A stretch of 50,896 bases of DNA from a virus (Duplodnaviria; Caudoviricetes), in IMG/VR virus record IMGVR_UViG_3300012665_000657, positions 1 through 50,896 of that record; one strand, written 5' to 3'. The notes beneath the pieces were generated by a model. That model searched no databases. It had not been told where the DNA came from and saw nothing but the letters and a program-made list of their open reading frames with translations. Below are positions 28,524-42,291 of this stretch, piece after piece. Numbering within the stretch: the first letter of the stretch is position 1; each line of letters opens with the position of its first letter. The position numbers and the translations under genes were made by a program.

Positions 28524-30221
28524 TTATGCAGCCGCTGCAATTTCTCGCCACGTTCCGCCTAAGTAAACTACCATAGTTTGTTTTCCATTAGACATTGGAT
28601 TCCATGTAGTACCATCAGCAATTGCAATTATACCGTTAACAGGTGACGCAGGCGCCGCGGTTAATATCGCAAGTTTAGCAAATCCGTTAACATCTAATGT
28701 TGCTTCGGCCGGAGATACTCCTTTGTTAATTCCAACAAAGCCTCTAGAGTCAATTACAACACCTTTGAAGTTAGCAGGATTACCATCAGTAAATGTACTT
28801 AATGAAATTGTTCCAGGAACAGTAGTCCCGTTGATAGTGCCACCCGGATCAACAAAGTGATTTATCGCAGTAGTTAGCTGATATGTAGTGCCATTGTGGC
28901 CAACAACGTTAGTCCCATAGATAATATCGCCTAACTGTAAGATTGCCGGAGCAGAAAGTGTTCCTCTAGATACAAAGTTATTTTCTCCAGTACCGGTTGA
29001 GCCGTTGGAGATTGCATACGATTCTGTATGATTTCCTGACTCTGGAACATATCGACGAACAGTAGTTGTGCGTATAGGATTTGCATTAACAATATCTAGA
29101 TAAGCTCTATTGGTAGTAATTGATTCAGTTTCAATTGCATCAAAGTTTCCGTCGGGTGCATTTACACTACCGCCGACAGTAATAACCTGTGTAGCAGCAT
29201 CAATAATAACTGTACTGTCGTCACCAATCATGCTACCAATAAACTGATTTGCTCTTACTGTTCCGCCAGGAACCGCTAAATCGGCATACATAGTAATGCC
29301 AACATCAGGTGTAACTGTCAATGCAGTTACATTGCCGCCGAGCGTAGTTCTTGTAAAGATAGTGAGCGGATTGTTTAGATCAGCATAGATACTAGTAAAG
29401 TTACCGTTACCAGTTACATCACCCTGTAGATTTCCAGTTACATTACCTTGTAGATTTCCGGTTACATCACCCTGTAGATTTCCAGTTACATTACCTTGTA
29501 GATTTCCAGTTACATCACCGATAAATCCACCCGATGCTGTTATAATTTCAGTATCAGAATTGATCATTAATGAACTGTCGTCAGCAGCAATGTTTATCTT
29601 ATAAGTGCTTCCTTCAATAACCCCATCACCTGTACCTGTACCTGTGCCTGTGCCAATAACAACACCGCCAATTGTACTTCCTGCAGGGAGTTCTACAACA
29701 CCGCCAGACGATGTAATAGTTGCGTCGCCTAAATGTAAGCTAGTGCCGCTTAAATACAGATCTCTAAATTTCAACCCAGATGAGCCAATATCATATGCTG
29801 AATCTGAATCTGGTATAATATTACCCTTAACTGTTCCGTTTAAGTTAATGCTAGCACGGATAGCGTCAACTAACGGTTCTCCGCCTAAACTAGAATCATC
29901 TGGAAATACTGAACCTTCAAACGCATCGGCTCTAATAGTTCCTGCATAATTTGAAAGTACAATATCCACTGTAGCGTTAATATATGTACCGTCGTAAGCA
30001 AAGGATATCCCTCCACTGTGGGTTCCCTCAGTGAACATTGTTCCAGTAATGTTTTTTATACCAGATTCGGTGAGATTTGCTACGGCAGTTCCGCCGAGGG
30101 TGTCACCATCACCGATATACAGGGTTCCTGTATTGGTTACATAAAGCAGCTCCCCGCTTGCTAAGGGCTCCACCATTGCTGTACGTTGCGTTTCAGTTCC
30201 GCGTCTAACCTGCAAAGGCAT
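28524..30221 (-). CDS. Tail fibre/virion appendage protein
   Basis: N-terminal LQVRRGT...GELLYVT..LYIGDG head motif; G/N/T-rich repeats; TAAATA at 30252-30257. Confidence 0.75.
   Translation of the reverse strand: MPLQVRRGTETQRTAMVEPLASGELLYVTNTGTLYIGDGDTLGGTAVANLTESGIKNITGTMFTEGTHSGGISFAYDGTYINATVDIVLSNYAGTIRADAFEGSVFPDDSSLGGEPLVDAIRASINLNGTVKGNIIPDSDSAYDIGSSGLKFRDLYLSGTSLHLGDATITSSGGVVELPAGSTIGGVVIGTGTGTGTGDGVIEGSTYKINIAADDSSLMINSDTEIITASGGFIGDVTGNLQGNVTGNLQGDVTGNLQGNVTGNLQGDVTGNGNFTSIYADLNNPLTIFTRTTLGGNVTALTVTPDVGITMYADLAVPGGTVRANQFIGSMIGDDSTVIIDAATQVITVGGSVNAPDGNFDAIETESITTNRAYLDIVNANPIRTTTVRRYVPESGNHTESYAISNGSTGTGENNFVSRGTLSAPAILQLGDIIYGTNVVGHNGTTYQLTTAINHFVDPGGTINGTTVPGTISLSTFTDGNPANFKGVVIDSRGFVGINKGVSPAEATLDVNGFAKLAILTAAPASPVNGIIAIADGTTWNPMSNGKQTMVVYLGGTWREIAAAA
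29409..29519 (-). repeat. Tandem 24-nt repeat encoding G(D/N)VTGNLQ
   Basis: About 4.5 units alternating GDVT/GNVT (48-nt period). Confidence 0.9.
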
Positions 30222-30280
30222 AAAATATTCTCCTACGATCTTTTTATCGTGTATTTATGCCAACTGCAGATAACTGTATT

Positions 30281-30856
30281 TTATTGATATTCGATATCAG
30301 CAGCTAATATATATCTATATTTTTCGCTTTGTACTATGCCCGGGCGGTGCCATTGATTAGACGGATAAATTAACCATGTAAAATCGCTGGGTTTTACAAA
30401 GAATTTTCCGGGCTGATCAATGCCGTTTGGAGCCATTTCTGTACCGCAATAGTCGCGATCTTTTACATCTTCGGGTATGTGCAGATAGAAGATTCCGCTC
30501 ATCATTTTGCTGTTAGGGTTTTTCGGATGCCAATGATTGTGCCACAGCGTTTCTCGATCTTCGGCACCCTCAAGATTTGTCATAAAACTCCAGGCCATCA
30601 TGTTGCTGACTTTTACTTCACGGCCTAAGTACATAAACAGAGAAAATAAAAAGCTCATACGATACTTTAACCATACAGGCTCGGGCCTAGCAAAAATGTT
30701 TTCTTTGGTTTGAAATTTGGGAGAATTTTCGAAATAATTTCCCGATGATACAATATCTGTTACTATTGATATTGCTTGTTGATTGTCGGCTTGCGTTATT
30801 GTAGAACTGAAATCAAATTTTCTAAAGGTGTCATCGCTATCTATAACTGTCATCAT
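30281..30856 (-). CDS. Putative 2OG-Fe(II) oxygenase (HxH type)
   Basis: WHNH..MSGIFYL...IYPS.QWH..R. Confidence 0.75.
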   Translation of the reverse strand: MMTVIDSDDTFRKFDFSSTITQADNQQAISIVTDIVSSGNYFENSPKFQTKENIFARPEPVWLKYRMSFLFSLFMYLGREVKVSNMMAWSFMTNLEGAEDRETLWHNHWHPKNPNSKMMSGIFYLHIPEDVKDRDYCGTEMAPNGIDQPGKFFVKPSDFTWLIYPSNQWHRPGIVQSEKYRYILAADIEYQ

Positions 30857-30857
30857 A

Positions 30858-31415
30858 TTATATAAAATTAAATGCTATTGATATTCTAGACTCGTCAGCT
30901 TGACTCATTTCTACCTGATGCCTAACATAACTAGGAAAAGTTACCATTAGCCCTTTTCTAGGCTCTTGAATTATTCTTCCTATATTATTCTCGTTCGGAG
31001 AATATTGATAGATGTGTTTATGAAAATCATCAGGTCTCTCAATTACTAATGCACCGGAATTTAATGGTGCAGTAATATATAACACTGAAGAAATTAAACA
31101 GCCGGGATGAGTATGACTGGTATTGTAGCTGTATTTGTTGTTTACATTGAACCAGTAATTTCCTAATTTAGGTGTAGTTGTAATTCCTAAATCATCATAC
31201 ACCTGCTGTATTTCTTTTAATACTTCCTTCATTAACTCATTCATAAAAAGTTTACTTTGCGTAAACGGTTTACTTTGCCATCCATATCTATTACTGCGTT
31301 GCTCAGTAAGTGGATTATGATCCTTAAAGTCTAAAATAGACTGTTCTAGTTGATCAAGGGGAGTAGTTAAATCTGAAAAATAAAGGGAAGTAAAAAACGG
31401 TGTAGACTTTTGCAT
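30858..31415 (-). CDS. Putative 2OG-Fe(II) oxygenase (HxH type)
   Basis: WFNVN..SHTHP..SSVLY...FPSYVRHQV..RISIAFN. Confidence 0.85.
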   Translation of the reverse strand: MQKSTPFFTSLYFSDLTTPLDQLEQSILDFKDHNPLTEQRSNRYGWQSKPFTQSKLFMNELMKEVLKEIQQVYDDLGITTTPKLGNYWFNVNNKYSYNTSHTHPGCLISSVLYITAPLNSGALVIERPDDFHKHIYQYSPNENNIGRIIQEPRKGLMVTFPSYVRHQVEMSQADESRISIAFNFI

Positions 31416-31431
31416 ACTGTCTTACAAATTA

Positions 31432-31505
31432 TGGAGCGGAGTGAGAGAATCGAACTCTCGACCGAAGATTGGAAATCTGCTGTTTTGCCATTAAACTAAC
31501 CCCGC
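31432..31505 (-). tRNA. tRNA-Gly(TCC)
   Basis: Cloverleaf, loop TT-TCC-AA, encoded CCA. Confidence 0.95.
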
Positions 31506-31511
31506 ACTAAC

Positions 31512-32084
31512 TTAGATCAATCCTTCCGATTGCAATGTATTTACAACATCATCACTTAAAGGGATCTCAGTTTTGATATTTGCTTCAAGCACTTCGTCGT
31601 TAAGTGATTGCTTTTGTTTCTTGAGATTTTGAATCTCGGCTTTTGCCTGCTTAATCTGCTCTTGGTCAACAACACTAGTTGACACTGTATCTTCACGACC
31701 ATACAAACTTGCACGGCTGTCATCTTTGCGATCACGAATTTTTGACAGCTTGCCTATAATTACAGGTAGATCTAATACTTCCTTGGCGCTGGCAATTTGC
31801 TCCAATTGGACAATACGTTTGTCTACGAATGCTGCCTTTGCCAAAGCCAAGTCAATGCCAGATGCATTATTGGCAGTACCTACCAAGCCTCGGATATTAT
31901 ACAAGGCTAATAGCAATCGTTGACGTCGACCATCATTTTCAAACAATTTTGAATTTGCAGCAGCTAGAGCACTTAGTGGTTCTTGAAATTCGTTGATTTC
32001 AATAGAGGTGCTGATATCAATGGTTCGGATAGCCTCATTGATAGCGTTTTGGATAGCGTTAGCTTTGCGTAAAGAGATCTTCAT
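31512..32084 (-). CDS. Coiled-coil protein, possibly DIP1984-like
   Basis: Helical; N-terminal MKISLRKA, C-terminal LNDEVLEANIKTEI; family match from memory only. Confidence 0.55.
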   Translation of the reverse strand: MKISLRKANAIQNAINEAIRTIDISTSIEINEFQEPLSALAAANSKLFENDGRRQRLLLALYNIRGLVGTANNASGIDLALAKAAFVDKRIVQLEQIASAKEVLDLPVIIGKLSKIRDRKDDSRASLYGREDTVSTSVVDQEQIKQAKAEIQNLKKQKQSLNDEVLEANIKTEIPLSDDVVNTLQSEGLI

Positions 32085-32085
32085 A

Positions 32086-32316
32086 TTACATACGTCCTTT
32101 TAAATTCTTCTTCATCATCTTTTCTAAAAACTCAGTTTTTGTGTATAGACCCTCTTCGATTTCTCTTAGGGCCGTTACAATGGCGGTAGCGTCAGTGTGC
32201 TCGAGTCGAGCCTTGGAACCATTTTTTAATTCTCTTGCTCGTTGGCTAGCAATGATTACTAGATCAAATCTACCACCAACCATCTCTGCTGCTTTTTCTG
32301 ATGTAAATCGTGCCAT
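32086..32316 (-). CDS. rpoZ: RNA polymerase omega subunit homologue
   Basis: MARFT...RFDLVIIASQRAREL...VTALREIEEG; AAGGA RBS. Confidence 0.9.
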   Translation of the reverse strand: MARFTSEKAAEMVGGRFDLVIIASQRARELKNGSKARLEHTDATAIVTALREIEEGLYTKTEFLEKMMKKNLKGRM

Positions 32317-32342
32317 TTTAATTCCTTTTATTTTTAACATGA

Positions 32343-32578
32343 CGGGTCAACGAAAGGTCAAGTAATAGACCGGACAATAGACAATGAAGAGTTGTAATCT
32401 TCGTTGACAATGTGCAAAGTACAATACACAGAGGCCTATATATTTCCGATTAACAAATGACATTCTATTAGGGTCGGATCACATAAACACGGTCCAATTT
32501 CAAGTTGGATTGTAAGTTCGGAGTAAGCATGAAGCTCACTTCGGTGTGTCTATCCTCATCTACCTTTCATCTCACCGG
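32343..32578 (-). ncRNA. Putative ~235-nt multibranch structured RNA
   Basis: GATGAAAGGT/ACCTTTCGTT and ATAGAC/GTCTAT close it; several internal hairpins; promoter directly upstream. Confidence 0.55.
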
Positions 32579-32605
32579 TTAAGTTATTTCTAACCTAACA
32601 AACTT

Positions 32606-32634
32606 ATTATACAACACTTATCTTATAAAGTCAA
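32606..32634 (-). promoter_or_regulatory. Sigma70-type promoter
   Basis: TTGACT-17-TATAAT. Confidence 0.85.
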
Positions 32635-32666
32635 CCTTTATTTGCATAATAGATTGACTTGATATT

Positions 32667-32756
32667 TGGCGGAACGAAAGAGACTCGAACTCTTAAACCG
32701 ACTTTCGCCGATCGACGGATTAGCAATCCGCTCCAATACCATTATGGGACCGTTCC
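32667..32756 (-). tRNA. tRNA-Ser(GCT)
   Basis: Class II cloverleaf, TT-GCT-AA, CCA. Confidence 0.95.
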
Positions 32757-32764
32757 AATTATTC

Positions 32765-32848
32765 TGGTGCGCAAGGAGAGACTCGAACTCTCAATCCTTT
32801 CGGCAGTGGCTTCTAAGACCACCGTGTATACCATTCCACCACTTGCGC
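32765..32848 (-). tRNA. tRNA-Leu(TAG)
   Basis: Class II, CT-TAG-AA, CCA. Confidence 0.95.
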
Positions 32849-32890
32849 AAAATTTTACTTCTAACATTGCTAATTGCTTAGTATGTAACT

Positions 32891-32919
32891 ATTATATAGT
32901 CTAATCTTTTGTGTGTCAA
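32891..32919 (-). promoter_or_regulatory. Sigma70-type promoter
   Basis: TTGACA-17-TATAAT. Confidence 0.9.
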
Positions 32920-32926
32920 CATATTT

Positions 32927-33000
32927 TGGTGCTCTAACGTAGAATCGAACTACGATTACTGTCATACCAAGACAGTGTTCTGCCATTAAACTATAAGAGC
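32927..33000 (-). tRNA. tRNA-Thr(GGT)
   Basis: CTGTC-TT-GGT-AT-GACAG, CCA. Confidence 0.9.
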
Positions 33001-33002
33001 AC

Positions 33003-33077
33003 TGGTCTCGCCTGCAGGAATCGAACCCACATTCGTAGGGTAGAAGCCTACTGTATTATCCATTATACGAAGGCGAG
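33003..33077 (-). tRNA. tRNA-Arg(TCT)
   Basis: GTAGG-CT-TCT-AC-CCTAC, CCA. Confidence 0.95.
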
Positions 33078-33084
33078 AATAGGT

Positions 33085-33233
33085 TTTCAAAGTGCCCAAC
33101 TATCTTTCTCAAGGACTCGCTGGATTGTCTCGAATAGCAGAGTTTAAACTACCTTGTACAGCTACTGGTGTGTCATGCTCAAGAATAGGGCACTAGCATA
33201 CAAGGGACTCAACACTATCGTCTATCTTCGAAA
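33085..33233 (-). ncRNA. Putative ~150-nt structured RNA between tRNAs
   Basis: TTTCGAAG/CTTTGAAA ends, AGTGCCC/GGGCACT, CCTTGTA/TACAAGG. Confidence 0.45.
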
Positions 33234-33235
33234 CT

Positions 33236-33319
33236 TGGTATGAGCGGAGGGACTTGAACCCTCAATCCCGAAGGCGGCAGATTTTAAGTCTGCTGTGTAT
33301 ACCATTCCACCACGCTCAC
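33236..33319 (-). tRNA. tRNA-Leu(TAA)
   Basis: Class II, CT-TAA-AA, CCA. Confidence 0.95.
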
Positions 33320-33416
33320 ATATAAGTAAACACACTAGCCATCGTCAAAAGGACAATGCCGCAGGCTACGCCCTAAAAGCTATGCTCGTTCTTTCACTAG
33401 AGTGTTTACATATATG
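33319..33416 (-). repeat. Conserved-stem hairpin cassette A
   Basis: CATATATGTAAACAC...GTGTTTACTTATATG enclosing a variable loop. Confidence 0.6.
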
Positions 33417-33495
33417 GTACCCCGGGCGGGAGTTGAACCCGCATTTAAATTTCTCTTTTTGAGAGAGACGACTTTGCCAATTTGTCTACCGGGGC
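33415..33495 (-). tRNA. tRNA-Leu(CAA)
   Basis: TCTCT-CT-CAA-AA-AGAGA, short variable arm, CCA. Confidence 0.9.
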
Positions 33496-33501
33496 ATTGT
33501 T

Positions 33502-33577
33502 TGGTGCAACCTCCAGGGATCGAACCTGGTTCAATGGCTCTTCAGACCACCGCTATGACCACATCAGCTAAAGTTGC
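33502..33577 (-). tRNA. tRNA-Phe(GAA)
   Basis: CT-GAA-GA loop, CCA. Confidence 0.95.
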
Positions 33578-33579
33578 AT

Positions 33580-33671
33580 TGGTACCAGCGGAGGGGATCG
33601 AACCCTCTCAAGAACGCTAATCTGGCGCTAAAAGGTTTATAAAACCTCTCTGACTACCAAGTCTCGCTGGC
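33580..33671 (-). tRNA. Non-canonical tRNA(TAT), Ile anticodon, short D-arm and long variable arm
   Basis: GCCAGCG/CGCTGGT-A-CCA; GACT-TGGT-AGTC; AGAGGT-TT-TAT-AA-ACCTTT; V-arm AGCGC/GCGTT. Confidence 0.8.
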
Positions 33672-33721
33672 AAAAGAAAAACTCTACAGCATCAACTATG
33701 TTGAACGAGTAGAGCCATGTT

Positions 33722-33795
33722 TGGGGTGAAGGGGAGAATCGAACTCTCTCTTACTGTTTCACAGACAGCCGTGCAGCCATTACACTACCGACACC
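33722..33795 (-). tRNA. tRNA-His(GTG)
   Basis: G-1:C73, CT-GTG-AA; two acceptor mismatches. Confidence 0.85.
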
Positions 33796-33957
33796 ATTAA
33801 CTTTTTTAAGAGCATCCTTACGCATCATGAAAGGACGCGGATTGTCTTGTTTGTGTACTACGAGATAGTCTACTCCGTCGATGACCTGAACGGCACGGAC
33901 ATCTTCGCATACTACCTGTTCACCGTTTCTTTCATTTACAAATGTCATTGATTTCAT
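33751..33957 (-). CDS. Small hypothetical protein whose 3' end overlaps tRNA-His
   Basis: AAAGGAG RBS, 68 aa. Confidence 0.65.
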   Translation of the reverse strand: MKSMTFVNERNGEQVVCEDVRAVQVIDGVDYLVVHKQDNPRPFMMRKDALKKVNGVGSVMAARLSVKQ

Positions 33958-33974
33958 AACTATCTCCTTTAATA

Positions 33975-34051
33975 TGGCCGGCCCTGAGAGACTCGAACTC
34001 CCAACTTCCAGTTTCGAAGACTGGCACTCTATCCATTTGAGTTAAGGACCG
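33975..34051 (-). tRNA. tRNA-Arg(TCG)
   Basis: CCAGT-CT-TCG-AA-ACTGG, CCA. Confidence 0.95.
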
Positions 34052-34513
34052 TTAATTTTTAAATGTTCGCCAATCGTCTATGTTTGGCTTTTCGTTTTCG
34101 TCGTATGTCCATCCTAGCGCCTTCATCATACGATGCTTGACTAACAGATTCGGACTGCGAAACCTTTCGGTATCGTTGAAGCCCAACATAACTCCAACTT
34201 CGCATACTGCACCGCTGCGACAAATTCCTGCAAAGCAATGAACAACAACGTTCATTCTATTTTCTAGAGCATGTTGCAGTAATCGAACAAGCTCGTTAGC
34301 TTGCTCCTGACTACAGCGCATGGCTTCATCTAATGCAAAGTCGTCCTTTTCGATGTCAAGAAACTCAAAGTTATGACGCTCTTTAAAAGTGTGCTTAGCC
34401 TCAGGCCTCCAGCTGGCCGGATCTACGATGCTAATCAACATACTGTTAGGGCCAGCATCGTGATGAAACCCAATTGGAATATCAGCCGCCGCTACATTTT
34501 CGATCCATGGCAT
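34052..34513 (-). CDS. Tyrosine/dual-specificity phosphatase-like protein
   Basis: VHCFAGICRS (CX5R); AAAGGAG RBS. Confidence 0.85.
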   Translation of the reverse strand: MPWIENVAAADIPIGFHHDAGPNSMLISIVDPASWRPEAKHTFKERHNFEFLDIEKDDFALDEAMRCSQEQANELVRLLQHALENRMNVVVHCFAGICRSGAVCEVGVMLGFNDTERFRSPNLLVKHRMMKALGWTYDENEKPNIDDWRTFKN

Positions 34514-34530
34514 TTTATTTCTCCTTTAAT

Positions 34531-34604
34531 TGGCACCCGGAGTAGGAATCGAACCTACAATAGCAGAGTCAAAGTCTGTTGTGTTACCACTACACTATCC
34601 GGGA
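34531..34604 (-). tRNA. tRNA-Gln(TTG)
   Basis: CT-TTG-AC loop, G73, CCA. Confidence 0.95.
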
Positions 34605-34614
34605 ATAAATTGAA

Positions 34615-34827
34615 TTTGTAAGTAGTTGCGTCCCTCATATCGCAACCATTTTCCCTTGTAATAAAGCCGGCAGGGTCAAGATACGTCACTCGGGATAACA
34701 GTCCAGTATGGCAACCAATCTGCGAGGATCTTCCGATCCTCTGGGAGTTGAACCCACTAACCTTCTACTGTCTTGGTAGTTCGAACTTACCTCGACAGCG
34801 TGACTCTCTCTTGCTGACACTTACAAA
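34615..34827 (-). ncRNA. Putative ~210-nt structured RNA with two T-loop-like hairpins
   Basis: TTTGTAAGT/ACTTACAAA ends; GTCAC/GTGAC; TGGG-TTCAACT-CCCA; GAGGATC-GGAA-GATCCTC. Confidence 0.6.
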
Positions 34828-34830
34828 ACT

Positions 34831-34911
34831 TGGTGCAGCCAAAGGACTCGAACCTTTGTGGCAACTAGTATTAGATGCTCTATACAGGGCACCCGCCTTC
34901 TCCATTGCTGC
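34831..34911 (-). ncRNA. Aberrant tRNA-like RNA (GTA loop, no D-stem)
   Basis: GCAGC/GCTGC-A-CCA, CAAAGG-TTCGAGT-CCTTTG, bulged anticodon stem. Confidence 0.6.
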
Positions 34912-34918
34912 GTAAACT

Positions 34919-34994
34919 TGGTGGTAATAGTTGGACTCGAACCAACGATAGGCTGCGTATGAAGCAACTGCATTAGCCACTATGCTATATTACC
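34919..34994 (-). tRNA. tRNA(CAT), elongator Met or Ile2
   Basis: GTTGC-TT-CAT-AC-GCAGC, paired 1:72, CCA. Confidence 0.9.
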
Positions 34995-35077
34995 AAACTT
35001 GTTATGGCTGTGCGAGCCCATCTGCACACTTAGGCTTTTTGTCTTCTCCTACCCGGGTAGTTACGACAGTGGCGTCA

Positions 35078-35170
35078 CCATATAGAAACACACTCAGGCG
35101 TAGTAGTTCTTTAGCCCACTAAGATACACGACTACCACTCGTGTCATTAGTTGAATGTGTTTTTATATGG
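35078..35170 (-). repeat. Conserved-stem hairpin cassette B
   Basis: CCATATAAAAACACATT...AGTGTGTTTCTATATGG. Confidence 0.7.
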
Positions 35171-35246
35171 CAAACTCATTGTAGGTTGGATTCGAACCAA
35201 CGTTGCCCCTTACCGAGGATTCCTACCACTAGAAGACTACGAGTTC
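35168..35246 (-). ncRNA. Aberrant tRNA-like RNA (long bulged acceptor, short anticodon arm)
   Basis: GAACTC-GTAG/CTAC-AAT-GAGTTT-G-CCA; D-arm TTCT-AGTGGT-AGGA; T-arm GTTGG-TTCGAAT-CCAAC. Confidence 0.65.
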
Positions 35247-35295
35247 TTGAGAGTAATTACTTCCCAATATGGTTGCTACCTGCAGATAACATTAA

Positions 35296-35374
35296 CCATA
35301 TAGAAACACACTAACAACAAATGCTATGCACTCTGGTTCTCAATCCCAGCTGTGGTTAATATGTTTTTATATGG
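35296..35374 (-). repeat. Conserved-stem hairpin cassette C
   Basis: CCATATAAAAACATATT...AGTGTGTTTCTATATGG; 17-nt 3' arm identical to cassette B. Confidence 0.7.
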
Positions 35375-35446
35375 TAGGGGCACAGAGAATCGAACTCTGA
35401 TTAATAGGTTAAAAGCCTACTACTTTAGCCGTTAAGTTATACCCCC
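35372..35446 (-). tRNA. tRNA-Lys(TTT)
   Basis: GTAGG-CT-TTT-AA-CCTAT, CCA. Confidence 0.95.
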
Positions 35447-35494
35447 GACATCTTATCACTCTTGTCACTATTCATGACAGATCTCCTTTTAAAA

Positions 35495-35887
35495 TTAAAC
35501 TTTCTCGTAACCTAGATCTACGCTTTCGCTGTAGTATCCGTTGCTTTCACCTAACCATCTCACGTCTACATAACCCTTACGAGTAGCAAACTTGTAAAAT
35601 GTCCAAGTACCCGATTCATTAAACTCTTGGTCAATGCTCTTGATCATATCAAACAGATTGTGTGTTTCTTCTGCCTTTAAAAGTACTACACCTTCTAAGT
35701 CAGATAAGTCACCTGTAATATCTTCAATACGAACATGTTCGCAACAGTCTTGCGAATGAAAAAATACATAACGCTCTGTGTCGTTTTCAAACACTAGTTC
35801 AGTACCGTCTACATTCTTTACGGAAGTAAACACTTTACCTACCATGTCTTCTATCTTAGCAGAGCTATTCCAGTCATAATAAGACAT
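35495..35887 (-). CDS. Conserved phage hypothetical protein
   Basis: HSQDCCE...TWTFYKFAT.KG.VDVRW.GESNGYYSE; AAAGGA RBS. Confidence 0.8.
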   Translation of the reverse strand: MSYYDWNSSAKIEDMVGKVFTSVKNVDGTELVFENDTERYVFFHSQDCCEHVRIEDITGDLSDLEGVVLLKAEETHNLFDMIKSIDQEFNESGTWTFYKFATRKGYVDVRWLGESNGYYSESVDLGYEKV

Positions 35888-35910
35888 AATAGTTCCTTTC
35901 TATTAATAAT

Positions 35911-35985
35911 TGGTAGCCAATGATGGGAACGATCCATCGACCCTCGCCTTATCAAGACGATGCTCTACCACTGAGCTAATTGGCT
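35911..35985 (-). tRNA. tRNA-Ile(GAT)
   Basis: TT-GAT-AA loop; atypical T-loop ATCGTTC. Confidence 0.9.
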
Positions 35986-35990
35986 GTATT

Positions 35991-36080
35991 TGGCGGAAGT
36001 GGTGAGATTCGAACTCACGGCCCCTTGCGGGACGACAGTTTTCAAGACTGCTGCCTTAAACCGGGCTCAGCCACACTTCC
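35991..36080 (-). tRNA. tRNA-Ser(TGA)
   Basis: Class II, CT-TGA-AA, G73, CCA. Confidence 0.95.
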
Positions 36081-36089
36081 AAAAAAAGA

Positions 36090-36185
36090 GCACTAGTAGA
36101 AAGAGTGAGTCGTTCCAATCTACCGACCAAGCAAACCCGACTATGTCTTGGGCTTCCTTCTTATCGCCGACCTTACGGCTAGTGC
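36090..36185 (-). ncRNA. Putative 96-nt four-way-junction RNA
   Basis: GCACTAG/CTAGTGC closing stem, three internal hairpins, followed by a U7 run. Confidence 0.45.
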
Positions 36186-36189
36186 ATAC

Positions 36190-36267
36190 TGGAGTGGCGG
36201 GTGAGATTTGAACTCACGGTTTTACGGATTTGCAATCCGTTGCAATGGACCTCTCTGCCACCGCCAC
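36190..36267 (-). tRNA. tRNA-Cys(GCA)
   Basis: TT-GCA-AA, U73, CCA. Confidence 0.95.
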
Positions 36268-36271
36268 ATTG

Positions 36272-36877
36272 TTACATTGTAGGACCGTTGCCGTTCCTAA
36301 AGCCAACACTTCCACCTTCTGCTTCGATACGCTTGATAACGTCTTCGAATAAGATAGGAGCAAAGTCAGGAGTTTGTTCTACGCAAACACAGTGATAACG
36401 AACATCAATTTCGTTGCTGTATAATGTAGCACCTGTTTTAGCATCCACACCACGAGCTTTTAACACACGATTTGTATGTAAGTGTCCGTGAATGTTAACG
36501 CCAAAACGTCCTAAACTTGCTTCGTGTAAAGGTATATGGCTTAAAATCATTCCGTTCATTACATGATAAGCACGTAACTCACGGAAGTAAGTTCTGTACT
36601 CGTCGTCACGAAAGATGTCGTGGTTGCCACGGATTAATACCTTGTCGCCGTTTAAACGGGCTAACGTGGGTAATGCCTTGCGGTTAATAACAACATCACC
36701 TAAGTGATATACTTTGTCGTTCGGACGAACACGATCGTTCCAAGCAGCAATCATGGCTTCATCCATTTCATCCGGATCAGTCCATGGTCGAATCTTTGTT
36801 ACTCCGTCTGATTCTGTGAAGCGGCAAACACCCGAGTGACCAAAGTGTGTATCGCTTACTAAAAATACACTAGGCAT
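36272..36877 (-). CDS. Calcineurin-like metallophosphoesterase
   Basis: SDTHFGH, LGD, GNHD, SH, HGHLH. Confidence 0.9.
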   Translation of the reverse strand: MPSVFLVSDTHFGHSGVCRFTESDGVTKIRPWTDPDEMDEAMIAAWNDRVRPNDKVYHLGDVVINRKALPTLARLNGDKVLIRGNHDIFRDDEYRTYFRELRAYHVMNGMILSHIPLHEASLGRFGVNIHGHLHTNRVLKARGVDAKTGATLYSNEIDVRYHCVCVEQTPDFAPILFEDVIKRIEAEGGSVGFRNGNGPTM

Positions 36878-36905
36878 CTTGCCCTCCTTTCTAAGTTAAT
36901 GTGTT

Positions 36906-36934
36906 ATTATACAATCAATTGCTCAAAATGTCAA
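36906..36934 (-). promoter_or_regulatory. Sigma70-type promoter
   Basis: TTGACA-17-TATAAT. Confidence 0.9.
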
Positions 36935-37703
36935 TCAATTTTTTATGCATTTTTCCTGCTAGTTCTATATGCGATTCGACCGGCGGATGACCGAACGCAC
37001 ATTTTTGCTCTTTTCCGTTTACAACCGGAAGTTGTAAATATTCTTCAGGTAGTACCATACTACCAATGTTAGTTTTCCAAATTGTATCAGCAAAAAGTCT
37101 ACTATGTATTAGCTCAAGTTTGTCAAGCTGATTCATATCATTGACCATAGGTTGCATTAACAAGTTTATATTTGATCTAAGACTAGCTAGTAGACTTAGG
37201 GTTTTAAAATATTGAAATACTATAAAATCATCGTTGAAAATATCTAACAGTAGTTTACTTCCTATATCGTATGGAATGTTCTTAGAAGTTAATGTTCTAA
37301 TTTTTTCTTTTGATCGAAAATCAATTATACGATTCATAGAGGTCAAACCCACTAATACCAGGTCAGTGTCTAGAATCAGTCCTTGAGTATAATCACTGTG
37401 AATTTGAAAATACTGTGCATCCAGGCCGCTGCCGTTAGTTGCTCTATTTTCAAACTCGAGATTTAATAGTTTAGCCAGTTGACCAGCCCAAGAACTACTT
37501 CTATGTAAAGGCTCGTCCCATCTTATTTTAAAGTCTTCTTTAAACTGTGTAGAACGAGCTAAGGATGCCTTACCATTTACATATGCCATCTTATGTTGAT
37601 TGCATTCTTCAAAAGTCATCCCCAAAACTATGTGATCCATAATTTCGTCTCCAGCAGTATCACTACTCCCGTATGCTAAAATTCGTTTGATATTTTTATT
37701 CAT
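36915..37703 (-). CDS. SGNH-hydrolase-like protein
   Basis: YGSSDTAG, ENRATNGSG, FGHP..SH; TAAGTA upstream. Confidence 0.65.
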   Translation of the reverse strand: MNKNIKRILAYGSSDTAGDEIMDHIVLGMTFEECNQHKMAYVNGKASLARSTQFKEDFKIRWDEPLHRSSSWAGQLAKLLNLEFENRATNGSGLDAQYFQIHSDYTQGLILDTDLVLVGLTSMNRIIDFRSKEKIRTLTSKNIPYDIGSKLLLDIFNDDFIVFQYFKTLSLLASLRSNINLLMQPMVNDMNQLDKLELIHSRLFADTIWKTNIGSMVLPEEYLQLPVVNGKEQKCAFGHPPVESHIELAGKMHKKLIDILSN

Positions 37704-37721
37704 ATCATTACTTATCAGGTC

Positions 37722-37795
37722 TGGAGCGGGATACGAGAATCGAACTCGTGACTAAACCTTGGCAAGGTTTCGTTTGACCATTAAACTAATCCCGC
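37722..37795 (-). tRNA. tRNA-Gly(GCC)
   Basis: TT-GCC-AA, U73, CCA. Confidence 0.95.
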
Positions 37796-37801
37796 GGTGG
37801 A

Positions 37802-38242
37802 TTATTTTTTTATAACTTGATATTCGTAGTTTACAGTATTTTCGTTTTCACGAAATATTTCAGCACCGTTTCTAAGATGGAACTTTCGAGCCATGTCAGT
37901 TTTAGGACTTAGTGTTACGAATCGTTTTACTGTAGGATACAGTTTTTGTATTTGCTCTACAGTTTGAAATAACAGATCTGATGCTGCGCCCGGCGCATAA
38001 CTCCAGATAGTGTAAAAAATAGCTGTAGTAGGATCGTCTGCATCTTTGCTAAGATCATCAACAGATCCCGGAACAAAGTCATGCAAGCTAACACATACCA
38101 TTGCTTGAGGTTTATCTTCAACTAAAGCACTCACAAATTTATTTTTAGACACACGGAAATCAACAGGGATTTCTGGTCTAACAGGATCATCCTTGATATA
38201 CTCAAGTAATGGGTCTGTGATGTTTGTGATAAAGTTTAGCAT
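37802..38242 (-). CDS. Hypothetical protein, GNAT-like fold
   Basis: AIFYTIWSY.PGA, FVTLSPKT..ARKFHLRNGA. Confidence 0.65.
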   Translation of the reverse strand: MLNFITNITDPLLEYIKDDPVRPEIPVDFRVSKNKFVSALVEDKPQAMVCVSLHDFVPGSVDDLSKDADDPTTAIFYTIWSYAPGAASDLLFQTVEQIQKLYPTVKRFVTLSPKTDMARKFHLRNGAEIFRENENTVNYEYQVIKK

Positions 38243-38315
38243 GGTGTCCTCAAAGATATTTTTGTTTATATGCGTACTTATCTCTGCACGTCAATATTAA
38301 TCATTTTGTAATAAT

Positions 38316-38390
38316 TGGAAGAGCCAAGGGGAGTCGAACCCCTCTTCTCAGGATGAAAACCTGATGTCCTAACCGATAGACGATGGCTCC
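38316..38390 (-). tRNA. tRNA-Glu(TTC)
   Basis: TT-TTC-AT loop, CCA. Confidence 0.95.
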
Positions 38391-38399
38391 ATAATACTA

Positions 38400-38473
38400 T
38401 GGTGGAGGTTAAGAGAATCGAACTCTTACGAAGACCTTGCAAAGGTCCCAGGCTACCATTACATCAAACCCCC
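38400..38473 (-). tRNA. tRNA-Ala(TGC)
   Basis: G3:U70, TT-TGC-AA, CCA. Confidence 0.95.
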
Positions 38474-38478
38474 ATAAT

Positions 38479-38554
38479 TGGCTCCCCAGCGTGGGATCGA
38501 ACCACGGACACCTTGATTAACAGTCAAGTGCAACTACCGCTGTGCTACTGGGGA
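38479..38554 (-). tRNA. tRNA-Asn(GTT)
   Basis: CT-GTT-AA, G73, CCA. Confidence 0.95.
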
Positions 38555-38561
38555 ATAAATC

Positions 38562-38783
38562 TTATTTTGCTGTGCTTGCGGTTCCAGTGTCATTCATCTG
38601 GTAACCGGTATTGCCTCGTGGCGCATTCCTGTCACGTGGAGCAGATTTAACAACAATACCCGATGCTAGTTCTGCTTGAATCATTGCACGTTTGAATGCA
38701 TTACGTTGTTCTGCATTAACAAACGTAGCCATGAATCGCTTTGTTTGCTTGCTAAGAACAAATGTTTTACCTGGTTTTAACAT
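38562..38783 (-). CDS. Small basic hypothetical protein
   Basis: Start MLKPGK after AAAGGA RBS; sits between two tRNAs. Confidence 0.7.
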   Translation of the reverse strand: MLKPGKTFVLSKQTKRFMATFVNAEQRNAFKRAMIQAELASGIVVKSAPRDRNAPRGNTGYQMNDTGTASTAK

Positions 38784-38804
38784 ATTATATCCTTTGTGGT
38801 TATT

Positions 38805-38880
38805 TGGTAGGACCTGCCAGGTTCGAACTGACGACATTCTGCGTGTAAGGCAGACGCTCTACCAACTGAGCTAAGGTCCT
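38805..38880 (-). tRNA. tRNA-Val(TAC)
   Basis: CT-TAC-AC, CCA. Confidence 0.95.
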
Positions 38881-38881
38881 G

Positions 38882-39076
38882 TTATTCTTCTTCAACATCT
38901 GTCACCGGAGCTCTATCAATTTTCTTTCTTGGTGCTCCCCATGCAGAGTAACTTTGGCCTTCTACTCGACCACTAACGTTTCTTCCAACTTTCTGAATAA
39001 CGCCACCCTTGGCTAAAAACTCTATAATTGCTGGATCTGTTTCTACGTGTTGCTCTACTGCTTTTTCTTTTGACAT
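38882..39076 (-). CDS. Small hypothetical protein
   Basis: AGGA RBS; IIEFLAKGGVIQK motif. Confidence 0.7.
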   Translation of the reverse strand: MSKEKAVEQHVETDPAIIEFLAKGGVIQKVGRNVSGRVEGQSYSAWGAPRKKIDRAPVTDVEEE

Positions 39077-39088
39077 ATATTTCCTAAT

Positions 39089-39165
39089 TGGTCGGAGTAC
39101 AAGGATTCGAACCTTGGACCCCCTGGTCCCAAACCAGGTGCGCTACCAGACTGCGCTACACTCCG
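39089..39165 (-). tRNA. tRNA-Pro(TGG)
   Basis: TT-TGG-GA, CCA. Confidence 0.95.
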
Positions 39166-39173
39166 AAATGAAC

Positions 39174-39249
39174 TGGTGCCGGTTGTCGGATTCGAACTGA
39201 CCACATCCGCCTTACAAGAGCGGCGCTCTACCTAATGAGCTAAACCGGC
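39174..39249 (-). tRNA. tRNA-Thr(TGT)
   Basis: CT-TGT-AA, CCA. Confidence 0.95.
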
Positions 39250-39273
39250 ATAAACTTTTACTGAACAACAATT

Positions 39274-39302
39274 AGTATAGCAGTCTATTTATAAACTGTC
39301 AA
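39274..39302 (-). promoter_or_regulatory. Sigma70-type promoter
   Basis: TTGACA-17-TATACT. Confidence 0.8.
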
Positions 39303-39324
39303 GTACTATCTTTGTAATAATGAC

Positions 39325-39400
39325 TGGCGTACCCTCAGGGCCTCGAACCCCGAACCTCTGGTTTTGGAGACCAGCACTCTGCCAATTGAGCTAAGGATAC
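39325..39400 (-). tRNA. tRNA-Trp(CCA)
   Basis: CT-CCA-AA, G73, CCA. Confidence 0.95.
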
Positions 39401-39406
39401 ATTAAA

Positions 39407-39526
39407 AGGTACTCGCTGTCCGAATCGAACGGAACTGTCTAACTCCTTATCTTCCTGAACCTTTCACGTAGTAGTCGACTTATACGCTTCTCATCGGTAT
39501 TCAGTGTAGTTAAACTTCAGCAAGTA
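39407..39526 (-). ncRNA. tRNA-like-domain RNA (acceptor + T-arm; long helix replaces D and anticodon arms)
   Basis: TACTTGCTG/CAGCGAGTA-CC; TCCG-TTCGATT-CGGA; GTTTAACT/AGTTAGAC; CTGAAT/GTTCAG. Confidence 0.6.
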
Positions 39527-39530
39527 TAAC

Positions 39531-39609
39531 TGGTTGCGGAGGCAGGATTCGCACCTGCGATCTCTAGCTTATGAGACTAGCGAGGACGACTGGACTCCTC
39601 TACTCCGCT
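39531..39609 (-). tRNA. tRNA-Met(CAT), initiator-like
   Basis: A1xA72 mismatch, CT-CAT-AA; lacks the 3 G-C anticodon pairs; T-loop TGCGAAT. Confidence 0.85.
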
Positions 39610-39615
39610 ATAACT

Positions 39616-39690
39616 TGGCGGTCCCAAGGGGTAACGATCCCCTTCTTCGACAGTGACAGTGTCGTGTGCGTCCATGAACACTTTGAGACC
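39616..39690 (-). tRNA. tRNA-Asp(GTC)
   Basis: CT-GTC-AC, G73; T-loop ATCGTTA. Confidence 0.9.
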
Positions 39691-39696
39691 TAAACT

Positions 39697-39783
39697 TGGT
39701 GGAGGAAGTAAGATTCGAACCTACTAGTCCCTAAGAAAACAGATTTACAGTCTGCCGCACCCCTCCAACTGTGCCGTTCCTCC
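39697..39783 (-). tRNA. tRNA-Tyr(GTA)
   Basis: Class II, CT-GTA-AA, CCA. Confidence 0.95.
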
Positions 39784-39793
39784 ATTAAACTAA

Positions 39794-39927
39794 TTATAAC
39801 ACACTCCCGGCCGCTTGTCAACAACCCGATGAAAACTATGTTTTCAATTTAAGGAATGTGTGTATTAAAATGTTCTCCGCTATGCGTTTAGACACTGTCA
39901 AAGAGTGAATGAAGAACACTTTAATAC
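39794..39927 (-). repeat. Conserved-stem hairpin cassettes D and E
   Basis: ACACATTCC/GGAGTGTGT and GTATTAAAGTGTTCT/AGAACATTTTAATAC. Confidence 0.55.
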
Positions 39928-40039
39928 GCTGTAATTTTTCCCTACACAAGAGTAGTTCCATCCTACAGGCCGCCCGTTTGCTCTATGTTTTAAGTGCGGA
40001 GCGAGGTCCTCGTTACCTCTTATTGCACTTCACTAAATG

Positions 40040-40073
40040 AAAAACCCCAGGGTTTTTAATCCTAGGGTTCTTT
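40040..40073 (-). terminator. Intrinsic terminator/attenuator ahead of the tRNA array
   Basis: AGAACCCTAGG-ATTAAAAAC-CCTGGGGTTTTT. Confidence 0.75.
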
Positions 40074-40095
40074 AAGTTTAAGTAGTGTCTGCTAT

Positions 40096-40263
40096 TTAAG
40101 CGTAACCACTTCCCTCCAAGAACCCCGAGCTAATATAGCCCTCTGGTGTGCGATCATATGATAAACTTCCACAATTAATCGCGAGCCAACCGGAGGCTAT
40201 AAAGCCTGCCTGTTTAGGCATCGTATTAAATGTATGTTGTCTATTAAACGATTGCATTTTCAT
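40096..40263 (-). CDS. Putative leader peptide (55 aa)
   Basis: AAGGA RBS; lies between promoter and terminator; contains anti-terminator strand GGGGTTCTT. Confidence 0.6.
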   Translation of the reverse strand: MKMQSFNRQHTFNTMPKQAGFIASGWLAINCGSLSYDRTPEGYISSGFLEGSGYA

Positions 40264-40303
40264 TTTCCTTTTTATAAACAGCAACCCTGCTGTCTATGTT
40301 TTA

Positions 40304-40332
40304 ATTATACAGTTATTTAGTCTCTGTGTCAA
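40304..40332 (-). promoter_or_regulatory. Sigma70-type promoter P1 of the tRNA array
   Basis: TTGACA-17-TATAAT. Confidence 0.9.
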
Positions 40333-40389
40333 CCACTATTTGCATTTCTGACAAAATAAATTTTGACGCCTTCCTAACCAACTGTATGT

Positions 40390-40418
40390 ATTGTATTGCC
40401 TTTTTATTTAGCCGTCAA
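40390..40418 (-). promoter_or_regulatory. Sigma70-type promoter P2
   Basis: TTGACG-17-TACAAT. Confidence 0.7.
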
Positions 40419-40456
40419 CTAAAATATGGCTACTTAATGTGGTATTTTTACAACAT

Positions 40457-40717
40457 TTAATCAAAATATGTTTCACCACTGATCAATATGTGTTTGCCAA
40501 TTTCAAACAGGCCAATGCCACCAGGGAGATCCATTGCAGCCACATGTATCTGGCACTCTCCGCCTGTGTCAATTGAGCAGGCTACAAATTCTTTGATGTT
40601 GCCTTTTTCAATTGAGTCCTTAATGAAGTCGATAACTTGTAGCATAGCCTTCTTCTGTTCTTCTTCTTGAACTTGTTCTTTACGTTTAGTATTGATGCTA
40701 ACGACTTCCATATTCAA
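40457..40717 (-). CDS. Hypothetical protein
   Basis: 86 aa ORF directly downstream of clpP. Confidence 0.75.
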   Translation of the reverse strand: MNMEVVSINTKRKEQVQEEEQKKAMLQVIDFIKDSIEKGNIKEFVACSIDTGGECQIHVAAMDLPGGIGLFEIGKHILISGETYFD

Positions 40718-40720
40718 CCT

Positions 40721-41278
40721 TTATAGTAGATGATCTGCAACACCAAGGTCAATTGCTTCTTGTGGTGTAAGATAAACATCGCTGGCAGGCAAAAGTTTTT
40801 TCTTGATTACACTAGGAGCAAGTCCTGTGGCTTCTTTCAATACAGCTACCATCATTTCATTGCTCATCTCATTGCCTTTCATAGTAGCTTTGAGATCGTG
40901 GTATTTGCCTTCTGTATTTTCTGTAAATTGATGACACATAAACGAAGCATTTTTTCCTGCGTATCTTTCACCGTGAGTTCCAGAAACCGCAATTAAAAAT
41001 GCTGCACTCATTGCTGAACCAATAGTGATAGTTCGAATAGGATGGCTACTAGATTTCATAATATCAACTAGGGCAAGTGCAGAGTATAAATCACCGCCTG
41101 TTGAGTTGATATACAGAGTTAGAGTTTTTTCTCGGGTGTCAAAGTTTTCATAAACAATCCATTTAATGCATTCATTGACGTTTTCGTCAGTAATTTCACC
41201 TGACAGGAAATGGACAGAATTTTCTAGTAATTTTAGGTCAATCCGATCGCTGGCGTTAAATTCGTCTATCTTTTTCAC
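40721..41278 (-). CDS. clpP: ClpP-like protease subunit
   Basis: LYINSTGG, AMSAA (Ser), FMCHQ (His), DVYLTPQEA..G; GTG start after AAGGAG. Confidence 0.9.
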   Translation of the reverse strand: MKKIDEFNASDRIDLKLLENSVHFLSGEITDENVNECIKWIVYENFDTREKTLTLYINSTGGDLYSALALVDIMKSSSHPIRTITIGSAMSAAFLIAVSGTHGERYAGKNASFMCHQFTENTEGKYHDLKATMKGNEMSNEMMVAVLKEATGLAPSVIKKKLLPASDVYLTPQEAIDLGVADHLL

Positions 41279-41325
41279 TGCTGCTCCTTGGATACTATTA
41301 CTTATCATATCTAGTAATTATACTA

Positions 41326-41697
41326 TCAGTTAATAGCAATTGCCCCTACGATCCAGCCAATAATAGCAATATAGGTAAGATAATGCAGAGCTTGATCTAG
41401 TCCAAACCAAATCCAAAATTTACGATCTGCAGGAGTTAGCCCTTTGTTTAACTGTTGTTTAGCCCAATCAATGTGATAGTGTGCTGCCATATCAAACAAT
41501 GCAGGAAATACAGCCATTGTACCTAAAAACGGTAAAAGAATAAACCAAGTCCAAATGCCATGCATAGTAGCATGATGTATGCCGCCTTCTGCTCCGTAGA
41601 TTCCCTTCTGTGAAATCATGTAAGGAAACTGCAATAGAAAATCACAGATAAAATGCTTAATTCCAAATAGAGCTAATAATAAGATAACGGTGCTCAT
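41326..41697 (-). CDS. DUF3307-like membrane protein
   Basis: HFICDFLLQ, HYHID, DQALH. Confidence 0.8.
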   Translation of the reverse strand: MSTVILLLALFGIKHFICDFLLQFPYMISQKGIYGAEGGIHHATMHGIWTWFILLPFLGTMAVFPALFDMAAHYHIDWAKQQLNKGLTPADRKFWIWFGLDQALHYLTYIAIIGWIVGAIAIN

Positions 41698-41879
41698 TCT
41701 GGTACCGGGCTAAATCTACTTAAAAAACTTTCTTGATAACAACTGTATTCTCTAATTTCACCATCTGGTGCATTTTCTTTAATATAATGCACCCATGTAT
41801 GGCCTTCTAGTTCTATTACATGTATAACATGAAATTTATCATTATTACTACCTACCCACCTTGACCCTTCTTTAACCAT
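41694..41879 (-). CDS. Small hypothetical protein
   Basis: Start MVKEG after AGGAG. Confidence 0.7.
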   Translation of the reverse strand: MVKEGSRWVGSNNDKFHVIHVIELEGHTWVHYIKENAPDGEIREYSCYQESFLSRFSPVPE

Positions 41880-41889
41880 AGCTTGTCTC

Positions 41890-42291
41890 CTATTTAAAAG
41901 TTTCCAACGCTTCTGTATCAACGTTCTCAGTCATATGTAGCATAAAACGGTAACCGTCCCAGGCTTTCTTGACTGCGTCATTCTCTGACAACTCTGTAGG
42001 AAACATATCAACCCAAATGCTATTAGCAGGTTGTTTGTGGCGATGGATACCTTCGCGGCGCGGCTGAATCAATTTATTGTTTTCCCAAAGACTCTGGGCA
42101 ACACGCTGACATTCAGCTTCGTCGAGTCCCTGAAGATAATCATGTCGAAACATATAATCGGTGATAACGGGGCCTAACTGTTCAGGTTCGCGGATACAAG
42201 TTGCTGTAATAATAAAAGCAACATCATCCTCACTGACTTTTCCAATAACAATATCACGAATACAACGACCTAGGCTAAATCCAATTTTCAT
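41890..42291 (-). CDS. Hypothetical protein
   Basis: MKIGFSLGRCIRDI; C-terminal NDAVKKAWDGY. Confidence 0.75.
   Translation of the reverse strand: MKIGFSLGRCIRDIVIGKVSEDDVAFIITATCIREPEQLGPVITDYMFRHDYLQGLDEAECQRVAQSLWENNKLIQPRREGIHRHKQPANSIWVDMFPTELSENDAVKKAWDGYRFMLHMTENVDTEALETFK

Follow-up and report, generated by a model that had tools for sequence, protein, structure and literature searches.

Why phages carry arrays of tRNA genes has been an open question for more than 50 years, and one answer, set out in the accessible part of PMC10264068, is that the arrays offset depletion of host tRNAs. The 50,896-nt stretch analysed here (the window, to whose positions all coordinates of the leader locus refer) is a virus contig that carries 28 tRNA genes. 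The initial annotation had proposed that a leader-peptide attenuator switches on the tRNA array when translation fails. A control element with one codon of each kind at the head of an array would mean that array output is tuned to decoding failure, and the hypothesis of host tRNA depletion would become testable by a simple reporter.

Anatomy of the leader locus

All elements of the locus are located on the minus strand (Table 1). The two sigma70 promoters, the ribosome-binding site and the 55-aa ORF described initially were all recovered, as was the terminator, said to follow 22 nt after the stop codon: its stem (40072-40061/40051-40040, 9-nt loop, −16.3 kcal/mol) starts 22-23 nt past the ORF stop and is followed by UUUUUCAUUU. 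The stock hairpin scan omitted this terminator because its loop exceeds 8 nt. The transcript from the proximal promoter would start near 40297. The second ATG, at 40257, is the likelier start of the leader, since it lies 8 nt from the Shine-Dalgarno sequence (2 nt for the ATG at 40263) and relatives begin with MQS. The peptide uses 19 amino acids, Val being absent, and a profile search gave no Pfam or PHROG match; an Rfam search of the locus returned only tRNAs above threshold. A ClpP-like gene (40721-41308, minus strand) is found just upstream of the leader.

Table 1. Elements of the leader locus, the downstream RNA and the tRNA array (window coordinates).
Feature	Position	Strand	Remarks
Distal sigma70-like promoter	40390..40418	−	10/12; TAAATA in spacer
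Proximal sigma70 promoter	40304..40332	−	12/12; TAAATA in spacer
Predicted 5′ hairpin	40274..40297	−	5′ of ribosome-binding site
Shine-Dalgarno sequence	40266..40269	−	AGGA
Leader ORF	40096..40263	−	55 aa (53 aa from ATG 40257)
Conserved GATCGCACACCAGAG	40141..40155	−	Reads DRTPE; nucleotide-level conservation; predicted pairing back on start region
Antiterminator 5′ arm	40118..40126	−	GGGGTTCTT; within ORF
Intrinsic terminator	40035..40072	−	U-tract to 40035
Structured RNA	39930..40029	−	Pseudoknot 40029-39980 followed by GGGCGG and another domain; reached first after terminator
Bypass promoter	39793..39821	−	12/12 with extended −10; 9 nt 5′ of tRNA-Tyr
tRNA array	31432..39783	−	28 tRNA genes, all 20 amino acids, small ORFs interspersed
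Internal promoter	39274..39302	−	11/12; TATAAATA in spacer; 5′ of tRNA-Thr
Further internal promoter matches in array	36934, 33090, 32919, 32634	−	

The 5′ arm of the terminator, 40072-40061, is common to the terminator and the antiterminator. Complementarity between the 3′ part of the ORF and this arm had been noticed from the letters, and it holds up: 40126-40118 pairs with 40072-40064 in a rod of −26.4 kcal/mol as compared to −16.3 for the terminator, and when the 70 nt upstream were shuffled, an equally good duplex arose in only 7 of 2000 cases. Among the 14 terminator-like hairpins in the window, the leader terminator is the only one at which a short ORF is combined with a duplex that reaches −8 or beyond. 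The leader RNA as a whole folds far better than shuffled sequences (z = −5.6).

In the equilibrium fold of the window RNA the antiterminator reaches 0.91 when the RNA is free, and it also forms with a ribosome at least 18 nt before the arm, while the terminator reaches 1.0 once the arm is covered, an outcome that is partly built into the folding model in which the arm is masked. Across the family the behaviour of the free RNA is mixed (11/25). With an upstream ribosome the antiterminator wins over the terminator in 14 of 25 diverse leaders in the equilibrium model, and bacterial controls mostly fail too, which marks the model as crude. Because the model fails in many leaders and in most of these controls, the order of folding during transcription probably matters. 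The earlier proposal of mutually exclusive hairpins is borne out by the shared arm and the covariation described below.

Conservation of the switch across relatives

Relatives were sought in viral, metagenome and bacterial collections with a pattern that describes only the antiterminator and terminator RNA and is blind to the peptide. Counts from these scans refer to the matches listed, and flanks were taken for 80 loci per scan; loci were counted if they were distinct and had at least 1 kb of downstream and 150 nt of upstream sequence, and they are called tRNA-linked if a tRNA lies within 1.5 kb downstream of the switch, which applies to 47 of the 67 viral loci listed. The ORF rule asked for an ATG ORF that spans the arm and stops before the terminator. 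Such an ORF ends inside the switch in 45 of the 47 listed tRNA-linked loci, as compared to 5 of the 20 other viral loci (p = 5e-9), and the difference between tRNA-linked and other listed loci was replicated twice (23/26 vs 1/13 and 12/14 vs 5/37). In all 103 leaders the ORF stop lies 9-34 nt past the start of the arm, in all three frames relative to it, the rule itself having demanded a stop before the terminator. In 69 of 70 listed loci of the window's subfamily that were not found by peptide query, an ATG opens the frame in which the conserved GAT is read; each other frame is open in 0 of the same 70. The gaps that separate Trp from DRTP likewise come in multiples of three.

Both helices show signs of selection on pairing. 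At the one pair position left free by the pattern, the 47 listed tRNA-linked viral loci have C:G in 26, T:A in 18, T:G in 3 and C:A in 0 cases, and the listed tRNA-linked metagenome loci have 9, 4, 1 and 0, respectively; a C-A mismatch at this position is therefore found in 0 of 61 listed tRNA-linked loci, as compared to 7 of 28 other listed non-T-arm metagenome loci. Flanking positions that the pattern leaves unspecified are paired above shuffles in both helices, and the upper terminator stem is Watson-Crick paired at 75-98% in the 103 listed relatives vs 36-59% when shuffled. These counts are anchored on the motif because a MAFFT alignment shifts the arm by one column between subgroups.

A promoter of at least 10/12 lies within 150 nt upstream in 99 of the 126 leaders listed, as compared to 6% in shuffles, and in 34 of these 126 the ATG follows the −10 box by 5-9 nt, i.e., at the predicted transcription start. 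Leader lengths vary from 21 to 56 aa, peptide identities go down to chance level and the C-termini are written in three frames. The check suggested at the outset was thus run on relatives: ORF, antiterminator and terminator keep their layout, the helices show covariation, and the peptides have diverged.

The same RNA pattern in bacterial genomes retrieved leaders with runs of Leu, Phe or Trp, which serve as a positive control for the geometry; the genes behind them, recognised from their N-termini, are presumably leuA, chorismate mutase, trpE and ilvC. Two contigs from Verrucomicrobia MAGs (L183 and L240, about 1336-1570) carry leaders of 58 codons that use 20 and 19 amino acids, together with the same kind of switch, at a distance of about 700 nt from tRNA-Trp/Asn, on its 5′ side; these are possibly a cellular or integrated version of it. 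In seven freshwater sequencing runs, one of them probably DNA, assembled contigs of relatives cover the leader, some pieces stopping at 40039-40040 and others continuing; RNA ends and levels are not readable from contigs, and contig stops cannot show RNA ends. A blastn search of the window locus against cultured phages gave chance matches only, and the second leader subfamily matched cultured phages only through its tRNA-Trp.

Amino-acid and codon coverage of the leaders

The idea of a sensor for all amino acids is strongly backed by the statistics of the family, not by those of the single peptide. For the window peptide alone, 19 amino acids without Val had been called suggestive but statistically weak, and this is confirmed (P = 0.37 for at least 19 amino acids in 55 residues, relative to fragments of phage genes). 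Coverage was assessed for 103 distinct tRNA-linked leaders among the matches listed, from which greedy sets of 25 at <35% identity were drawn because single-linkage clustering at 35-40% chained by chance. These sets cover 17.4-17.7 amino acids as compared to 15.7-16.4 across both nulls (0/400), for example 17.4 vs 15.7 for phage genes and 15.9 for pooled codons. The excess is unchanged by position-stratified shuffles and also holds in the subset found only in later scans (n = 12). It amounts to +1.5 to +1.8 amino acids in the coding frame, as compared to −0.04 to +0.3 when the frame is shifted. Antisense frames in register with the ORF reflect its own pattern and do not count as an independent control. 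Among listed leaders of at least 40 aa, 44 of 52 use at least 19 amino acids and 32 of 52 use all 20, and at least 19 are used by 2 of 45 listed small ORFs directly downstream of leaders. The most frequent residue has a median share of 13%, so that no run of a single amino acid is present, and Ala makes up about 5% of leader residues. The leaders may share remote ancestry, in which case the permutation counts overstate certainty.

The window's own family (29 dereplicated members, counted within the sensing zone) shows how coverage is kept. Cys occurs exactly once in 24 of 29 peptides and never twice, its position being spread over 12 alignment columns; a single internal Met is found in 27 of 29, in 8 different columns; His is present in 29/29 and Tyr in 25/29. 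Shuffling within columns never reaches the observed coverage (0/1000). Presence of a residue that is kept while its position shifts is the pattern predicted by selection for one codon of each kind. All 20 amino acids, including the Val absent from the window peptide, occur in 14 of its 15 closest relatives among the matches listed.

With the peptide held fixed, the codons fall into 22.7 decoding classes vs 21.9 expected (1/400), ordinary genes being less varied (a negative value). This is the weaker result, since shifted frames show part of the effect (+0.04 to +0.35 vs +0.6 to +0.9 classes in frame); the over-diversified synonymous codons nevertheless point to sensing at the level of tRNAs. 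In short leaders the codons agree with the tRNAs that follow (0.39 vs 0.24, 4/5000, n = 8). Three short leaders (L082, L097 and L427) are written largely in amino acids of the tRNAs just behind.

Control of the array and related systems

Our main reading, which we regard as probable, is that the leader ORF and the antiterminator/terminator pair form a ribosome-coupled transcription attenuator that samples nearly the whole tRNA pool, shortage of any tRNA raising transcription of the tRNA region. Folding predicts that the antiterminator stays when a ribosome is held in the first ~41 codons or when no ribosome is present, and that the terminator forms when a ribosome reaches the last ~13 codons and covers the antiterminator arm, so that the sensing zone would comprise roughly the first 41-42 codons. 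Fast translation would then give termination and a stall in the first ~41 codons read-through, the signal being slow decoding due to tRNA that is cleaved, depleted or not charged; the tRNAs of the phage itself would close a negative feedback loop.

In the window the read-through transcript would first enter the structured RNA, which has a pseudoknot with an AACGAGG loop and a GGGCGG linker. Its motif lies 5′ of the first tRNA in 62 of the 126 leaders listed, and helices 1-4 are 83-95% paired, with compensatory changes in four helices (46 sequences); no Rfam match was found for 40029-39930. Guessed pairing columns for its second domain were only 22-28% paired and were rejected. Long stems close 39930-39790 (minus strand), 5′ of tRNA-Tyr, where the bypass promoter overlaps one arm. 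Directly past the terminator, a lysine/glutamate-rich ORF of ~50 aa is found at L009:2227-2403 and in about 45 relatives, with no PHROG match; it would be the first gene that the switch induces in those relatives, and it is absent from the window. Four small ORFs downstream of leaders had no Pfam or PHROG match. Within the array, a small ORF (38882-39076, minus strand) has a weak match, below cut-off, to a SutA RNA-polymerase-binding domain. Elsewhere, the window harbors, at 10934-24152, a cluster of radical SAM genes and a tryptophan-halogenase-family gene.

The proposal that the leader switches on the tRNA array stands as regards the gating layout, not as regards a sole on-switch in this genome. 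A promoter of at least 11/12 between the terminator and the first tRNA is found in 17 of 126 listed leader loci, the window included, and one of this strength within 1.4 kb past the terminator in 33 of 93 listed loci; at least one tRNA is reached before any strong promoter in 77 of these 93. Judging from this layout, the switch probably gates the first tRNA block in most relatives. In the window genome the bypass promoter separates the first tRNA from the terminator, and five more matches lie inside the array, all six of them overlooked in the initial annotation; because these six (39821, 39302, 36934, 33090, 32919 and 32634) are past the terminator, the switch cannot alone turn the array on. 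It is predicted to gate the structured RNA 40029-39930 and only to add read-through to the array, as a booster and not an on/off gate, with the downstream promoters giving a basal level independent of the switch. TAAATA is found in the spacer of 53 of 86 listed leader promoters vs 0 of 17 bypass promoters. If TATAAATA corresponds to a T4 late promoter, which we take it to be, the attenuated transcript would also be a late transcript.

These promoters lead to the view that the family is an attenuator which is here irrelevant to the tRNAs, gating the structured RNA only while the array runs on its own promoters. Besides the 12/12 promoter in front of tRNA-Tyr and the five further ones, the missing Val codon, unlike in nearly all of the listed closest relatives, and the missing small helical ORF past the terminator would fit this view. 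However, the ORF, both helices and the promoter are intact in the window, a terminator scan of the window found no strong terminator between 40035 and tRNA-Tyr, so that read-through should reach the tRNAs, and the 77 of 93 listed loci in which a tRNA precedes any strong promoter do not fit; we consider this view unlikely. Alternatively, the leader might sense only general ribosome speed or coupling, as affected by antibiotics, ribosome shortage or host shut-off, with the codon diversity as a by-product. In the folding model a stall anywhere upstream gives the same fold, and multi-purpose antibiotic-sensing uORFs exist, going by the accessible text on toiL (PMC12121999). Such a sensor is quite unlikely here, as Cys, Met, His and Tyr kept once at shifting positions, the frame-specific excess of coverage and the codon-matched short leaders all need codon-specific selection.

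Two further explanations were considered. A functional small protein encoded by the ORF, with an ordinary terminator behind it, or a switch made of RNA only is very unlikely, although in the window's subfamily Trp is invariant and DRxP is conserved, and although the leader RNA folds strongly: the variation in length, identity and C-terminal frame described above and the compensatory changes in the antiterminator speak against this explanation, and an RNA-only switch would not need the observed frame constraint. That DRTP is a nascent-chain arrest motif sensing one ligand or factor is highly improbable. The motif does lie 9-21 nt 5′ of the antiterminator arm, where a stall would free the arm, but it occurs in just 29 of the 103 leaders listed, the spacing from W to D ranges between 7 and 16 codons, and synonymous variation is absent both at Asp, which is GAT in 74 of 74 cases, and at Thr. 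Moreover, 55 of 75 whole-leader folds show GAUCG of this stretch paired to the start region. Conservation of DRTPE thus appears to reflect a constraint on nucleotides, with pairing to the start region as the favoured cause. A hairpin between the W codon and the Pro codon was also considered as the cause of DRTP and was rejected; it appears in local folds but in only 9 of 75 whole-leader folds.

The probable reading as a ribosome-coupled attenuator places the locus near the leaders of amino-acid operons. The trpL, leuL, pheL, hisL and ilv leaders are leader-peptide transcription attenuators of amino-acid operons, and the phage locus resembles them in its promoter, the short ORF over the antiterminator arm, the shared terminator arm and the stop shortly past the arm; the retrieved bacterial leaders even carry the same GGGUCC/GGACCC arms. 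Unlike these, which have 10-14 distinct residues at short starts, the phage leaders show near-complete coverage without a single-residue run, thereby inverting the textbook attenuator code by coverage instead of runs. The target here is a structured RNA and tRNA genes, not a biosynthetic operon, and for window RNA that carries no ribosome the fold predicts read-through, without the behaviour of a protector (1:2) hairpin. T-box riboswitches also tie antitermination to tRNA status; each recognises a single uncharged tRNA by direct binding and lacks a translated leader, and a Rfam search with the T-box model gave no match in 30000-42000 at E ≤ 5. Arrest-peptide leaders of the TnaC/SecM type differ in that their motif is kept at the level of residues, leaves synonymous sites free to vary and has a fixed spacing.

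Among uORFs, that of whiB7/wblC in mycobacteria is similar in sensing translation stress by stalling coupled to an antiterminator. According to the accessible text of PMC10274678, a single Trp codon suffices for sensing of Trp shortage, loss of the start codon raises expression, and the M. smegmatis uORF uses 19 amino acids. It differs in having 25-40% Ala and in controlling a transcription factor (PMC10274678, same part), whereas the phage leaders are low in Ala and have no whiB7; here coverage itself appears to be selected and the output is tRNA, which would close the loop directly. The uORF toiL of E. coli topAI is alike in that one uORF senses stalls at different positions, and unlike in acting on translation initiation and Rho-dependent termination, in responding to antibiotics and in having no control of tRNA, as far as the accessible part of PMC12121999 goes. 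The trn L-array of Anabaena, with 26 tRNA genes, is likewise horizontally spread and induced when translation is impaired, and its control is by the repressor TrcR on promoter repeats (accessible parts of PMC8421152 and PMC10272220); the strings 'attenuat' and 'leader' are absent from the text of PMC8421152. The literature searched (titles and the start of abstracts, with most subscription journals and supplements outside) held no account of tRNA-gene attenuation by such a leader. The phage locus has structural features of ribosome-mediated attenuators, i.e., promoter and ORF, mutually exclusive covarying helices, an arm under the finishing ribosome and a frame constraint. It is likened to leader-peptide attenuators because these structural features of the kind are present, while the particular features of trp/leu, whiB7, arrest-peptide and T-box elements are not. 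Sequence comparison shows the switch to be real and conserved, and the function assigned to it here is a prediction.

Tentatively, we suggest that in many tRNA-rich phages such a 'pangram' leader audits the entire tRNA pool, one codon after another, detects tRNA-cleaving host defences whichever tRNA is hit and transcribes the replacements. With similar reserve, this suggestion could span freshwater T4-like giants, cultured vibriophages of the KVP40 clade and Atu_ph07, as an inducible counter-defence and tRNA feedback loop made of RNA and ribosome alone. The cultured-phage leaders are candidates, to be taken as leads and not as demonstrated homologues. None of 5 cultured genomes contains the exact RNA pattern of the family. 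The tRNA regions of 15 cultured phages were scanned, several of these regions lacking the array head; background matches were numerous at relaxed thresholds, and no convincing leader was found in the scanned regions of phi92, phiCbK, Bajun, RHph_TM3_3_6, Aes012, IME260, K4, GAP32, pEt-SU, XacN1, Aeh1 and 2.275.O. In the array of S-PM2 (L546:4369-4526), a 34-codon ORF and a strong terminator lie after the first tRNA and before the second, a weak candidate since its antiterminator is weak and the terminator wins in all folds. In Atu_ph07 (MF403008.1, about 339246-339118; L541:10119-10247, minus strand) a 42-codon ORF using 18 amino acids is combined with a long antiterminator rod and a terminator 126 nt before a block of 17 tRNAs; it was picked after the fact from the scan at relaxed thresholds, and no relatives of it were found in the collection searched.

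When six cultured tRNA regions were scanned without a motif, one match was obtained, in Vibrio phage V09, where an unannotated 37-codon ORF and a terminator precede tRNA-Pro at the head of the main cluster. Leaders of this type are conserved in 50 Vibrio phage records. In nine aligned genomes the start, the stop and the UAGUCC/GGAC arms are invariant, so that covariation is absent, and the antiterminator does not exceed the terminator in strength. The peptides use 19 amino acids in 8 of 9 cases, Gly missing in some lineages and Cys in others, each with P = 0.055 under the null, the peptides not being independent. The KVP40 leader ORF is located at NC_005083.2 178917-178804, where the record annotates a gene on the opposite strand. 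The 37-38-codon leaders of the KVP40 clade (L518:7555-7715 and L523-L530) include those of phages nt-1 and QD01, which grow on Vibrio natriegens and make infection tests feasible.
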